From Candidatus Micrarchaeota archaeon (lineage in GTDB: Archaea > Micrarchaeota > Micrarchaeia > Anstonellales > Bilamarchaeaceae), in assembly GCA_014727925.1 (NCBI GenBank), contig WJMN01000054.1, forward strand, positions 1-56,588: a DNA stretch of 56,588 bases, given 5' to 3'. Numbering within the stretch: position 1 is the first letter of the stretch; every line of letters begins with the position of its first letter. Position numbers and translations under genes: made by a program. Shown here piece by piece: positions 1,616-51,579 of the stretch. Below the pieces are notes generated by a model. It worked only from the letters and a program-made list of their open reading frames with translations, was not told the origin of the DNA and ran no database searches.

Positions 1616-2266
1616 TTATTTTTTCCTGAGCACAAGAAACAGGTGGCTTTTCTCATAGGGTTCCAGGGCCACCTCCTCAATCAGCTCAAGCTCTGAAGAA
1701 ATCTCTTCTTTTACCTGGGCATATGTCTCTTCGGGGCTCTGGGTAACATCAATGCTCTGGGACTTGATTGCAATCATCGCATATCCCCCTTTTCTCAGGA
1801 ACATCCTGCTGTTTTTTAGGAGAATGTCTGCCTGTTCCGGAGAGGCAACATCCTCATATATTACATCCACCTTCCCGATCTCCTGGTAATTTTTTGGCTG
1901 GCGGGCATCTGCAAGAATGGGAATAACATTCTCTCTTTTTTCGCAGAAGCGCAGGAGAAACTTCATAGAATGGGCAGATATCTCCACTGCATATATCCCT
2001 CCGTCCGTAAGTACATCAGAGATGTGGGAAGGGGTTGTTCCGGTGGAAGCCCCGAGGTATAGGATTTCTGAATCATGTTTTATCGGATTGTTCTTCAGGC
2101 CGTTTTTTATGGCTGCGCAGAGTTTGCTGCGGCGGGGGTTCCATGCCCGGTATTCTTTTCCATTGATGTTGAGCAGGCGTTCCCCATAAACCTGCTTTCC
2201 TGGCACCCTGTTTCTGGTCAAGATTCTGCCTTCGTGCTCAAAGACATTTTCAAAAATTTCTTTCAT
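1616..2266 (-). CDS. flpA: Fibrillarin-like rRNA/tRNA 2'-O-methyltransferase
   Basis: YGERL, YRAWNPRRSKL, ILYLGASTGTTPSHISD, DARQP motifs. Confidence 0.95.
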   Translation of the reverse strand: MKEIFENVFEHEGRILTRNRVPGKQVYGERLLNINGKEYRAWNPRRSKLCAAIKNGLKNNPIKHDSEILYLGASTGTTPSHISDVLTDGGIYAVEISAHSMKFLLRFCEKRENVIPILADARQPKNYQEIGKVDVIYEDVASPEQADILLKNSRMFLRKGGYAMIAIKSQSIDVTQSPEETYAQVKEEISSELELIEEVALEPYEKSHLFLVLRKK

Positions 2267-2281
2267 CTGTCTACCTTTTGC

Positions 2282-3535
2282 TCAGAGCCGCGGCTTCCTC
2301 AGTGTCATTGTGGGGAAAAGGGTCTGTGCCTTTTCTTCAGAAAGAAAGTCCAGTGCAGAGCTGCAGGCCGGGCATCTAAACCCATAATCCGAAGCAGAAA
2401 CAAACTCATGGATACTGGCGCCTCCGCAGCTGGGGCAGAAGTAATATTCTCCGTTGCTGAAATCAAAATTCCTGAGCTCTTCCTCAACCCTTCCATTTAC
2501 CCAGGTCTTCATCCGCCCAACATTCAGGCACCAGAAATATGAAAACCAGCCGGTCTCTGAATCCTTATGGCGGGAATAATCAACAATTCCAAGGGAGTGG
2601 AGCTTGTTGAGGGTAGCACGCACATCGCTTATCTTTATCTTGAGTTTCTTGGAGATTTCCTCATCACTTATGTTGTTGGAGAACCCGCGGACTATCTCCA
2701 GGGCATGTTCTCCCCCTGCTTCTATAAGCACGTGGCGGGCATAAGCATCAGAGAGAAGGCGGGAGATCTCCCCCTTGTTAAGCGGCTTTCTTTCAGGCAT
2801 GCCCGGTTTCTTTGCTTTCATTTCAGGGGCTGTTTGTTTCTTTGCTATTGACTTTGTTTGCTTTTTTGGAGTTTTCTTCTTGCCGCCCCGCTTGGCAACT
2901 GCCTTCCTTACTGCAGACTTTGCAGCAGAACGATTTACCTTGGCTTTTTTGGAAGATTTGTTAGTTGATTTTTTACCGGGTTTTTTTGTTGTTTTCTTCC
3001 GGCCAGGTTTCATGGCAGACATTTTGGCAGATTTCGCCTTTGGTGTTTTCTTAGCTGTTTTTCCTTTAGTGGTCTTTTTCTTTGGGCTTCCTGCAGCGGA
3101 TTTTTTGGTTTTTATTTTTCTCTTGATCGTGCCCTTCCCCGTCTTGATTTTTTTCCTTGGTGCTTTTTTTGCTGTTTTCTTTTTGGCAGGTGCCCTCACT
3201 GGCTTTTTTGGAGTTTTCTTTTTTGCCCTGTTGGTTGGGGATTTTTTTATTTTTTTATTTTGCGGTTTTCTGAGGGAAAGTTTTTTTTCCTCTGTTTTTC
3301 TGGGTGTTTTGTTCTTTGGGGCTTTTTTGCCGGTTATCTTTTTTGTAGGTGTTTTTCCTTTGGCAGATTTTTTCCTGCAGGGCTTTTTTCGCTTGGCCCC
3401 GGCTGCGGAGGTGTTTGTGCGTGCTGTTTTTTTCTTGGTTTTTGCCTTGCCCTTTACGGGCTTTTTCTTGACCACCTTACGGCGGGGAGAACTCGCCTTT
3501 TTCCGGGATTTAGAAATACTACCTTTTTTATTCAT
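2282..3535 (-). CDS. tfe: Transcription factor E (TFE alpha) with ~250-aa Lys/Ala-rich N-terminal extension
   Basis: C-terminal ~165 aa have the winged helix (SDEEISKKLKIKISDVRATLNKLH...GWFSYFW) and Zn ribbon (CPSC...CPAC); GGTGGT SD-like motif before the ATG at 3535. Confidence 0.88.
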   Translation of the reverse strand: MNKKGSISKSRKKASSPRRKVVKKKPVKGKAKTKKKTARTNTSAAGAKRKKPCRKKSAKGKTPTKKITGKKAPKNKTPRKTEEKKLSLRKPQNKKIKKSPTNRAKKKTPKKPVRAPAKKKTAKKAPRKKIKTGKGTIKRKIKTKKSAAGSPKKKTTKGKTAKKTPKAKSAKMSAMKPGRKKTTKKPGKKSTNKSSKKAKVNRSAAKSAVRKAVAKRGGKKKTPKKQTKSIAKKQTAPEMKAKKPGMPERKPLNKGEISRLLSDAYARHVLIEAGGEHALEIVRGFSNNISDEEISKKLKIKISDVRATLNKLHSLGIVDYSRHKDSETGWFSYFWCLNVGRMKTWVNGRVEEELRNFDFSNGEYYFCPSCGGASIHEFVSASDYGFRCPACSSALDFLSEEKAQTLFPTMTLRKPRL

Positions 3536-3682
3536 CAGACCACCACAAACCAGCAGATTATTTTAGGGGGTTTCAGCTATTTAAATGTTTGCGGGAGCCG
3601 CAGAAGCAAAAGGGTTTTATTCAGTTTGGTGCAGGGCGATTTCCTTTTTTAAAATATTGAAGAGAAAGAACAGTGGGAAAAA

Positions 3683-4867
3683 ATGAAACCGGATAATTAC
3701 TGTGTTGCGTGCAAGGGAACAAAAAACCTTTGCGGCCTAGGATACTGCCCTATACTCAAAAGGATACGTGCACAGCACAAGCTGGACCAGGACATAAAGC
3801 AGGACCTTTTCGGCCCTTCCAACGAGGTGTTCGTTGGCTCAGCAAATTATCCTGATGTTTCCTGGGGTCCGGTGGTTTCGCTTTCTGATTACAGGGGAGT
3901 AAGGGAACTCTATGAACAGGGATACGGGAGGGTGGTTGAGGCTCGCGCGGCAATGGTCAAGGGAAAGCGCTTTGGGGGAATAAAGCCCCACAGGCGGAGT
4001 GTCAGAGAAACTGCTGAAGCGGCAATCTCCACCCGGGCTGTGGACCTGGAAGTGAATTTTTCAAGGAAGCCCAGCTATGACATGCGGTTTTCTTCCCTTG
4101 TCCAGCCTACCGGGGCATCTGCGCCGATGAAGAGGCTGCGTGTATGCGATAATCCAAAAGTTCCCAGGAAGGTTGACAGCATACTGGAAGAAAAAATGAA
4201 GGCAGGGGCCGCGGCAATAGAGCTTTACCAGAAAGGGATGGACAACTATTACATCTCAAGCGTGCTTTCAGTGGGCAAGCTGGGGCTTGAGGAAAACAGG
4301 ATAATGGTGCCAACAAGGTGGAGCATAACTGCAACTGATGACATGCTTGGAAAGCACCTGATACAAAGAGTTCGGGAATTTAAACAAATGAACAGAGTAT
4401 GGCTTTTTAGCCACACCTCTTTTTCAAACCATTACGAAATAATGCTGATTCCGGGGAAATGGGAATTTGAAAATTTTGAAGCGTGGTGCCCCAATACACT
4501 GTGGAACCCACAGGGAAGCAGGGCAAGGATAAGCGAAGAATACGAGCCATTTGGGGGAAGGGGCAAATATGCAAAATCCCAGGCCGGGGCTTACTACTCA
4601 GTGCGGCTTGCGGTACTTGAGTTCCTAGAGAGAATATGCAGGCAGGCAAGGGTGGTTGCGTTCAGGGAAGTATATGAGGGCTACCAGGTCCCTGTAGGGG
4701 TATTCCAGGTAAGGGAAAATGCAAGGGACGCTATGGAGAATCCGGAGAGATTTTCCAGTGTTGAGGAAGCACTCGGGGTTGCTGCAGAGAGGATGAGGAT
4801 TCCTGTGGGAGAATACCTGAAAAAGAGCAGGGTTTTGGGGCAGAAGAACCTGCTGGAGTTTATGTAA
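3683..4867 (+). CDS. nreA: Nre family DNA repair protein
   Basis: N-terminal CxxCKG..LCG...CP, VPTRWSITATDD, GKWEFENFEAW, VPVGVFQVRE, C-terminal PIP box QKNLLEF. Confidence 0.92.
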   Translation: MKPDNYCVACKGTKNLCGLGYCPILKRIRAQHKLDQDIKQDLFGPSNEVFVGSANYPDVSWGPVVSLSDYRGVRELYEQGYGRVVEARAAMVKGKRFGGIKPHRRSVRETAEAAISTRAVDLEVNFSRKPSYDMRFSSLVQPTGASAPMKRLRVCDNPKVPRKVDSILEEKMKAGAAAIELYQKGMDNYYISSVLSVGKLGLEENRIMVPTRWSITATDDMLGKHLIQRVREFKQMNRVWLFSHTSFSNHYEIMLIPGKWEFENFEAWCPNTLWNPQGSRARISEEYEPFGGRGKYAKSQAGAYYSVRLAVLEFLERICRQARVVAFREVYEGYQVPVGVFQVRENARDAMENPERFSSVEEALGVAAERMRIPVGEYLKKSRVLGQKNLLEFM

Positions 4868-51174: not shown

Positions 51175-51579
51175 ATGGGATTCGTTGATAAATTAAAGCG
51201 GTGGCTCTTTGGCTCAGAGGAAAAAAAAGAAACAAAGGCCACTCCCGAGCCTCCGATACAGGAAAGGGAAACAATAGTTTATGAAGAAGATGAGGAAGAG
51301 CCCAAACCACCGGAAATAGATGAATATGCAGACGTGGAGTTCACTACAGCATCCAAAAAATCTTACAGTAGTATTCCCATGGAGGGTACCACTATGGTGA
51401 AGAAAAAACCAACAAAGAAGAAAACGGCCGGAAAGAAAAAGACAGCAACAAAGAAGAAAACAACCAAGAGAAAACCAGTGACAAAGAAAAAGACAGCAGC
51501 AAAGAAGAAAACAACCAAGAGAAGAACAACCACTAAAAAGAAAACAACCAAGAAAAAGTCTTCAACAAAGAAGAAATAA
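51175..51579 (+). CDS. Protein with N-terminal amphipathic helix, acidic linker and histone-H1-like KKKT repeat tail
   Basis: MGFVDKLKRWLFG; E/D/P-rich middle; KKKTx repeats; possible internal start at 51394 after GGAGGG. Confidence 0.75.
   Translation: MGFVDKLKRWLFGSEEKKETKATPEPPIQERETIVYEEDEEEPKPPEIDEYADVEFTTASKKSYSSIPMEGTTMVKKKPTKKKTAGKKKTATKKKTTKRKPVTKKKTAAKKKTTKRRTTTKKKTTKKKSSTKKK
51433..51560 (+). repeat. Degenerate 51-nt coding tandem repeat (about 2.5 units of KKKTAxKKKTTKRxxxT)
   Basis: AAGAAAAAGACAGCA(A/G)CAAAGAAGAAAACAACCAAGAGAA starts at 51433 and 51484; partial third unit at 51535. Confidence 0.75.

Follow-up and report, generated by a model that had tools for sequence, protein, structure and literature searches.

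A TFE-alpha gene with a 254-residue lysine-rich N-terminal tail in a Micrarchaeota genome, and the occurrence of basic TFE tails across the phylum

The TFE locus and the TFE core

The window analyzed in this work is the whole 56,588-nucleotide (nt) contig WJMN01000054.1 of a Candidatus Micrarchaeota archaeon, a tiny symbiont (assembly GCA_014727925.1), and the element in question is a reverse-strand gene for transcription factor E alpha (TFE-alpha) whose open reading frame (ORF) begins with a long lysine-rich extension. Archaea use only three general initiation factors, among them TFE, which is homologous to TFIIE of eukaryotes; TFE-alpha bridges the clamp and the stalk of RNA polymerase (RNAP) and aids the opening of promoter DNA. 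The ORF is the sole TFE-like gene in this 1.0-Mb, 88%-complete genome. It lies between a fibrillarin gene and a divergently oriented Nre gene, and the features of the locus are listed in Table 1.

Table 1. Features of the TFE locus (positions in the window; residues and codons counted from the first ATG of the 417-aa ORF; L020 and L021 are homologous loci of relatives)
Feature	Position	Strand	Evidence or remark
Fibrillarin gene	1616..2266	-	15 nt downstream of the TFE stop codon; PF01269 in L020 and L021
TFE-alpha ORF with polycationic N-terminal tail, 417 aa	2282..3535	-	ATG start; stop codon at 2282-2284
Zinc ribbon, residues about 364-398	2342..2446	-	Cys367, Cys370, Cys388, Cys391
Extended winged helix, residues about 254-337	2525..2776	-	Pfam, alignment, AlphaFold, PDB profile, Foldseek
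Wing Trp330	2546-2548	-	Invariant; within the extended winged helix
Lys-rich disordered tail, residues 1-254	2774..3535	-	Composition, AlphaFold, Pfam, repeat and omega analyses
Internal Met246 (GMPERKP), would yield a bare 172-aa TFE	2798..2800	-	Conserved in L020 only
Conserved island SAAKSAVRKAVAKR, residues 203-216	2888..2929	-	Shared motif in relatives
Internal Met172 and Met175 (KMSAMKPG)	3011..3022	-	Unconserved; AAA and AGG (Lys, Arg) in the closest relative
Divergent-promoter intergenic region, 147 nt, Nre (3683-4867, +) to TFE	3536..3682	.	Comparison with L020
Shine-Dalgarno-like GGTGGT	3539..3544	-	GGTG begins at -9 from the ATG
TATA-box-like TTTAAATA	3578..3585	-	42 nt upstream of the ATG

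A reading made from the letters of the window (the sequence-only reading) had placed a TFE unit of canonical size after about 250 in-frame Lys, Ala, Thr, Pro, Ser and Arg residues, and the ORF, Pfam and NCBIfam agree on this layout. Residues 255-417 form the core, a winged helix followed by a four-Cys zinc ribbon. PF02002 (TFIIE_alpha) matched residues 271-355 (E=1.4e-13; 51.1 bits, cut-off 22.9) and NCBIfam NF004910 matched residues 255-399 (E=2.4e-26), the latter under its equivalog cut-off (92.1 vs 180 bits), which was also the case for TIGR00373 (84.2 vs 149.5 bits). The NCBIfam TFE equivalog cut-off was reached by 0 of the 151 Micrarchaeota genomes sampled, so that the low score reflects the divergence of Micrarchaeota rather than membership in another family. 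A profile of 40 sequences found the Thermococcus kodakarensis TFE chain 6kf4_G in the PDB (E=7.6e-26) and also matched the TFE-alpha of Pyrococcus furiosus and Sulfolobus solfataricus. The AlphaFold model is confident across residues 254-412, with a predicted local distance difference test score (pLDDT) of about 90 or more over residues 254-337; Foldseek with this model returned 6kf4_G, 6xjf and TFIIE-alpha chains in polymerase complexes, with target-normalised TM scores of 0.68-0.75 to 6xjf and 6pln (winged helix). The wing residues G329-W330 are invariant in the alignment and correspond to the motif ETGW in T. kodakarensis TFE, and the four cysteines of the ribbon are invariant across the 40 sequences and align to the ribbon of 6kf4_G. 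We concluded that the gene encodes a genuine TFE-alpha core, and its product presumably binds the clamp and stalk and stimulates open complexes as other members of the family do.

The canonical archaeal TFE-alpha proteins of known structure (6KF4/6KF9; 6PLN/6XJF of P. furiosus; 1Q1H of S. solfataricus) share with this protein the extended winged helix, the four-Cys ribbon, the wing Trp and the single gene copy. They measure about 170-195 aa and start about 5 residues before the winged helix, whereas here 254 disordered residues come first.

Start site and translation of the tail

The sequence-only reading had also pointed to a Shine-Dalgarno (SD)-like GGTGGT before the first ATG, and the genome bears this out. 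Upstream of the ORFs of this genome GGTG is enriched about four-fold with sharp peaks at -9 and -11, and the position found here, -9, is the modal one. The closest relative, L020, is an ENA metagenome contig whose TFE core is 96% identical; GGTGGT is conserved in it, and also occurs in P0011 and P0016, database proteins of two more distant relatives, where it is read through in over-called ORFs. The TATA-box-like TTTAAATA is identical in L020, and the same AAACATTTAAATA was seen in P0011 and P0016. The window and L020 have a common gene order (Nre, opposite-facing TFE, fibrillarin) with an intergenic region of 147 nt in both, which is 95% identical compared with 78% for the adjoining tail-coding DNA. 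This intergenic identity (3536-3682) stays at 95% despite a synonymous divergence of about 0.5 in the flanking genes. A conserved CAATATTTTAAAAAAGG block lies in the Nre/TFE intergenic region as well and presumably belongs to the Nre promoter.

Stop codons upstream of the core in relatives, which the sequence-only reading had named as a sign against a fused product, were looked for, and the upstream frame is open in the relatives. In comparison with L020 the ratio of non-synonymous to synonymous rates (omega) in the TFE frame comes to 0.42 over codons 1-171 and to 0.31 over codons 172-254, and pseudo-omega in the shifted frames is 0.69-1.29. The synonymous divergence (dS) of the tail, 0.48-0.54, matches the core's (0.46), and synonymous and non-synonymous rates in the tail differ (p=1.7e-4). 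Differences in the tail fall on the three codon positions as 43/40/68, the third position changing most, and the three indels between the two tails (4, 9 and 3 codons) are all in frame. Stops number 11 and 12 in the remaining two sense frames, and when codons 1-171 were shuffled with their composition preserved, only 22 of 20,000 shuffles (0.1%) stayed open; the open frame thus exceeds chance. Judged by these rates, the tail is under weak but real purifying selection.

The internal methionines were compared in the same way. Codon 1 and codon 230 (equivalent to Met246 of the window) are the only possible starts in the closest relative, and Met246 is missing from relatives other than L020. No SD motif was found upstream of any of the six internal candidate starts. 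An internal start would imply an untranslated leader of about 510-735 nt in a genome whose DNA is covered to about 96% by selected ORFs. Among 51 loci of tailed families, 12 have no ATG, GTG or TTG start that would remove 40 aa or more of the tail, which makes the tail unavoidable there. The conserved promoter and SD, the coding signature and the lack of conservation of Met172 and Met175 strongly support translation of all 417 aa from the first ATG.

Public gene calls misplace the TFE start. The gene in the window is stored as a 246-aa product that begins at Met172 (P0002), whereas 417 aa is the likely product; in P0011 and P0016 the promoter and SD (AAACATTTAAATA ... TTTGTGGTGGT) were read as 41 extra N-terminal residues, after which MPRKQPKKK follows. 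TFE annotation in DPANN genomes therefore needs care, as the calls either truncate or over-extend the genes.

Composition of the tail and the conserved island

The tail (residues 1-254) contains 92 Lys, 17 Arg, 4 Glu and no Asp, which gives a net charge of +105 and a pI of 12.0. Its composition is 36% Lys, 7% Arg, 11% Ala, 10% Thr and 8% Pro, with just 9% hydrophobic residues, and it carries five [ST]P[KR][KR] motifs. AlphaFold gives pLDDT values of 41-56 and no secondary structure for it. Scanned alone at E<=0.01, the tail matched no Pfam family, and homology to a family known to Pfam was dropped as an origin. Neither tandem nor segmental repeats were found in the tail at the DNA or protein level (TRF reported trivial repeats only, and self-alignment was no better than that of shuffles), which leaves recent growth by tandem or segmental duplication unsupported. 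Among basic low-complexity segments the TFE tail is the longest genome-wide, more than three times the runner-up (254 vs 78 aa).

Within the tail a short island (Table 1) is kept among relatives. The 14-residue motif S[AIV]AR[KS]A[VIL]RKAVAKR occurs in every relative with a core identity of at least 67%, and it is absent elsewhere in this proteome; a module shared among proteins was ruled out on that ground, the motif being confined to TFE in this proteome. Most relatives have the island 32-55 aa from the N-terminus, with a variable poly-Lys stretch of 58-172 aa after it. In the window, the closest relative and G129 (a truncated sequence) it lies only about 38-40 aa ahead of the core, and in the window and the closest relative a Lys-rich sequence of about 190-200 aa precedes it. 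The distance from island to core ranges from 38 to about 170 aa among relatives. Since the position of the island differs among lineages, the tail has expanded on different sides and the spacing between island and core is unconstrained; such a variable distance would fit an element on a tether rather than one packed against the core.

Distribution of basic TFE tails in Micrarchaeota

By the source labels of its homologues the lineage belongs to Micrarchaeota, and one close relative carries the label Bilamarchaeaceae (order Anstonellales). A six-frame scan of 151 species-level Micrarchaeota genomes found TFE in 147, and the longest TFE open frame among the 151 genomes is that of the window. Tails were measured at 75 loci from 74 genomes, representing all 20 families in the sample (f1 to f20), plus L020. 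Basic N-terminal tails were present in 47 of 71 sampled genomes and basic C-terminal tails in 4 of 71. All 120 homologues of 229-421 aa among the database matches listed have an N-terminal extension rich in Lys and Arg. A second sample, taken with no length filter, was drawn from 1.84 billion proteins clustered at 50% identity and consisted of the 136 nearest representatives; of these, 90 carry a basic N-tail, 11 a basic C-tail and 35 neither, and the N-tails have a median of 80 aa and reach about 189 aa at the longest (with an over-called start corrected). The extension length that the sequence-only reading had wished to see compared across TFE orthologs is thus available for Micrarchaeota: about two thirds have a basic N-tail, with a median of about 80 aa. 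That reading had treated the fusion as a singular oddity, and in this phylum a basic tail turned out to be the norm. The 254-aa tail of the window is the longest found, the extreme of a common trait.

Families f1-f11 have basic N-tails of about 40-254 aa with 25-58% Lys plus Arg. Families f12, f13, f16, f18, f19 and f20 form one clade (support 100/100) that is nearly all tail-less, the exception being 1 of 14 members with a 52-aa basic N-tail; the primary copies of f15 and genome G030 of f14 are tail-less as well. In family f17 the basic tail is C-terminal and about 105-125 aa long, and f6 is mixed, with N-tails in some members, a C-tail in one and no tail in one. At least five changes of the N-tail state are required by the well-supported branches of a maximum-likelihood tree built from the cores, and the C-tails have at least three separate origins in it. 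Tail lengths within the genus of the window are 112, 155, 171, 238 and 254 aa. Lys and Arg are swapped across relatives while Asp plus Glu stays at a few per cent. Taken over the genomes compared, basic tails are the rule in Micrarchaeota and have repeatedly been gained, lost and resized at either terminus.

Several individual loci are worth recording. In f17, the TFEs at L009 (genome G051) and L072 (G093) have a canonical N-terminus and carry the C-tail after a coiled-coil-like acidic/basic helix; L039 (G061) of f6 likewise has a canonical N-terminus, with a basic C-tail of about 44-50 aa. Genome G116 of f15 holds two TFE genes (L069 and L070), one tail-less and one a long-branch copy with a 101-aa basic N-tail and a GTG start. 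This second TFE could be a paralogue, a transfer or a contamination.

Histones, Alba and TFE-beta

A histone-fold gene (PF00808) was not found in this 88%-complete genome, a search that leaves aside non-canonical histone families. PF00808 is also absent from 27 of 28 genomes of the same GTDB family and from five sister families, f4-f8; the search matched in three control genomes. Reviews class Micrarchaeota simply as histone-bearing (PMC6136690). Histones were present in 111 of the 151 genomes, f9 and f10 included, and the rest of the phylum has 1-4 copies. Families f9 and f10 keep 2-3 histone genes, yet have tails of 70-143 aa, and the median N-tail is 79 aa in genomes with 2-3 histone genes vs 87 aa in histone-less ones (Mann-Whitney p=0.81). 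All six tails longer than 150 aa in the sampled genomes belong to the histone-less family. An Alba gene is present in the genome of the window (L022, G000:C13:16090-16278). Histone replacement as a general explanation of the tails was rejected, as tails are equally long in the histone-bearing f9 and f10.

DPANN archaea have been reported to lack TFE-beta (PMC7289017). We detected no TFE-beta (PF05158) in the 151 Micrarchaeota genomes, tailed or tail-less, with a profile of limited sensitivity (it matched the Sulfolobus control and not the Haloferax control). As a test of the tail as a substitute for TFE-beta the profile does not discriminate, as the tail-less clade also has no PF05158 match; tail-less genomes being equally devoid of it, absence of TFE-beta alone is no explanation for the tail. 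Neither the loss of histones nor the absence of TFE-beta is tracked by the presence or length of the tail.

Proposed function of the tail and alternative explanations

We propose that the single TFE-alpha of this archaeon is made at 417 aa and that its tail serves as a non-specific DNA anchor near the promoter-opening domain, a reading to which we give a probability of roughly 60%. In the structure and model of T. kodakarensis RNAP with TFE-alpha and DNA, the N-terminus lies about 5 residues ahead of the winged helix, which is located at the upstream edge of the bubble, where the wing Trp stacks on the non-template base at -9 (PMC7704642). A polycationic chain emerging from the N-terminus of the winged helix would be positioned for the flanking promoter DNA. 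Lys-rich anchors of this kind have precedents: the Lys-rich disordered tail of the Sulfolobus RNAP subunit Rpo13 binds double-stranded DNA non-specifically (PMC3479171), and in actinobacterial TopA lysine repeats stabilise the complex of enzyme and DNA (PMC5714199). As a non-specific nucleic-acid anchor, chiefly for DNA, the tail could hold TFE on the nucleoid and raise its local concentration, quicken its delivery to pre-initiation complexes, and contact and charge-neutralise the flanking promoter DNA so that the open complex becomes steadier. The island would probably be an induced helix of short length, which a flexible tether would allow to dock on DNA or on a partner. Selection seems to act on bulk charge and length and not on sequence: tails were gained repeatedly at either terminus, charge was kept while sequence and length varied freely, and acidic residues are few. 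Only tentatively can one go further and regard the tail as a selected, repeatedly evolved trait of ultra-small DPANN archaea that makes TFE nucleoid-resident, with the island as docking element and with length tuning promoter opening to the ionic or chromatin state.

Several points weigh against the anchor proposal. Length turns over fast, from 112 to 254 aa inside one genus, which would fit near-neutral drift too, and one whole clade lives with neither tail nor TFE-beta, so that the tail is not indispensable. AlphaFold gives no helix for the conserved island. Met246 is kept in the closest relative, and a tail-less isoform could arise from it. The tail is weakly constrained (omega about 0.4), and omega of the NG type does not tell the sense frame apart from its antisense shadow frame (0.38 vs 0.39). 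Both translation of the tail and its DNA binding are inferred.

The tailed TFE might instead double as an H1- or Hc2-like protein that compacts DNA or forms condensates in a cell devoid of histones, a role that the sequence-only reading had suggested for a small cell. The H1-like composition and S/TPKK-type motifs of the tail would suit it, as would the missing histone-fold gene in this genome and in 27 of the 28 members of its family and the restriction of the six longest tails to that histone-less family. The comparison across genomes gave compaction no support, since tails of 70-143 aa are equally common in the histone-bearing f9 and f10 and length is unrelated to histone status (p=0.81); moreover, Alba is present, no linker-histone domain was found in the tail, and TFE, a basal factor, has a single gene copy. 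The abundance of a nucleoid-associated protein (NAP) would not be expected of a basal initiation factor, which speaks against this role as well, and we regard it as improbable. The tail may also be translated but have no specific function, being a near-neutral low-complexity expansion in which growth and shrinkage by A-rich slippage or mutation bias are tolerated at a flexible terminus. Lengths of 7-254 aa inside one family and 112-254 aa inside one genus, an omega ten times that of the core, and K-rich tails on other proteins of this genome would fit such drift. Such an expansion is nevertheless an unlikely account, given that charge is kept phylum-wide despite sequence turnover and K/R swaps, with acidic residues at a few per cent; that independent basic tails arose at the C-terminus; that a 14-aa island is conserved; that omega is below 1 with a frame-specific signature; and that the tail shows no repeats marking recent slippage and exceeds any other basic segment more than three-fold.

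Other alternatives deny the tail altogether or give it another ligand. If a short TFE only were made from Met246 or Met172, the upstream 735 (or 513) nt would be an untranslated leader; the retention of Met246 in the closest relative, where it gives a canonical 172-aa TFE, and the choice of Met172 by the public gene caller (P0002) agree with that. The internal starts have no SD, whereas codon 1 has GGTG at the modal -9 and a conserved TATA box 42 nt ahead; the closest relative has Lys and Arg in place of Met172 and Met175, Met246 is missing in the other relatives, the upstream codons show coding-type constraint and in-frame indels, and the tail is unavoidable in 12 of 51 related loci. A short product alone is therefore quite unlikely. 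Polycations do not distinguish DNA from RNA, and the tail could bind RNA rather than DNA, in the context of the nascent transcript, ribosomal RNA or small nucleolar ribonucleoproteins (snoRNPs). The conserved TFE-fibrillarin pair, 15 nt apart (window, L020 and L021), would fit this, and Lys-rich intrinsically disordered regions (IDRs) of eukaryotic snoRNP proteins are reported to act on RNA and in nucleolar compaction (PMC11528048). TFE, however, works at the DNA bubble, and Spt4/5 displaces it upon escape from the promoter (PMC7289017), and the tails are phylum-wide while the fibrillarin linkage was looked at in the window, L020 and L021; we hold RNA as the main ligand to be very doubtful. 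The chance is negligible that the real gene is the antisense ORF at 2775-3566 (+), 263 aa and rich in Phe and Leu, with the Lys-rich frame as its shadow. This ORF is open in the window and the closest relative with an equal apparent omega (0.39), and it mimics coding statistics because it shares its wobble positions with the sense frame. Stops break it in 22 of 43 tailed relatives, G082 of the same genus among them, whereas in tailed relatives the sense frame is open without exception and runs on into the TFE core; the openness of the antisense frame is expected from a T-poor (9%), AAR-rich sense strand, and the promoter and SD face the sense gene. The antisense ORF was rejected as a gene, its frame not being conserved in relatives.

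Weighed together with these alternatives, the TFE tail is real and probably functional, and it makes this protein a variant, typical of its lineage, of a well-known factor. The searchable literature yielded no account of Lys-rich TFE tails; what is new here is the extreme length, the start-site evidence, the shifting island and the negative tests with histones and TFE-beta. The extension is longer than TFE itself, lineage-wide and gained more than once. If the anchor proposal is true, the tail is a natural case of a disordered region that tunes the DNA affinity of a basal factor, and it shows how a minimal transcription apparatus gets retuned in reduced symbiotic genomes.

Comparison with other lysine-rich tails and with TFE-beta

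In composition the tail resembles the C-terminal domain (CTD) of histone H1 and the chlamydial histone-like proteins Hc1 and Hc2, being a long, predicted disordered Lys-rich polycation with S/TPKK-type motifs, and by analogy non-specific DNA binding and charge neutralisation are expected here. The likeness that the sequence-only reading had drawn to H1 and Hc2 is one of composition (36% Lys, the motifs and predicted disorder) and does not extend to homology, as neither a linker-histone domain nor any other Pfam domain was found in the tail and Ala makes up 11%. This Ala content is lower than what we take to be usual for H1 tails, and the likeness is compositional only. Unlike H1, the protein has no GH1/GH5 globular domain (Pfam, E<=1 for the full protein and E<=0.01 for the tail), and its tail sits on an initiation factor in a genome where PF00808 histones were not found; unlike Hc1 and Hc2, the tail has neither a Pfam family nor repeats. 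On these sequence features the tail is best described as an analogue, not a homologue, of the H1 and Hc tails.

The Lys-repeat tails of actinobacteria (Streptomyces TopA CTD, PMC5714199; HupS and the MDP1 IDR, PMC10810275) are likewise lineage-specific, variable in length and attached to a conserved DNA-transaction protein; they differ in being bacterial, C-terminal and carried by other host proteins, with no initiation factor among them. Rpo13 (PMC3479171) is, as here, an archaeal transcription component with a disordered Lys-rich tail, but it is a small RNAP subunit near the downstream DNA with a short tail, whereas the present tail comprises 254 aa on TFE near the upstream DNA. TFE-beta and TFIIE-beta supply extra contacts to the open complex; the tail contains neither a winged helix nor an Fe-S domain, and because tail-less Micrarchaeota lack TFE-beta too, it is not supported as a simple one-for-one stand-in.

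Neighboring genes and other lysine-rich proteins

TFE is probably co-transcribed with the fibrillarin gene that follows it. Fibrillarin adjoins TFE and not nop5, and the same arrangement was found in L020 and L021.

Elsewhere in the window, a 134-aa ORF at 51175-51579 (+) has an amphipathic N-terminus (MGFVDKLKRWLFG), an acidic middle part and a 75-aa C-terminal tail of KKKT repeats. Pfam gave no match for it, and its features suggest that it could be a small nucleoid- or membrane-associated protein. Lys-rich tails of 41-66 aa were also found at other places in the genome (C32:53432-54592, C4:14536-16227, C1:8413-9261 and C48:36999-38765). Their hosts are a Pab1020-type RNA ligase, with the tail N-terminal; the RFC large subunit, where it lies near the C-terminus; and, with C-terminal tails, an SdpI-like membrane protein and a coiled-coil protein of 588 aa.

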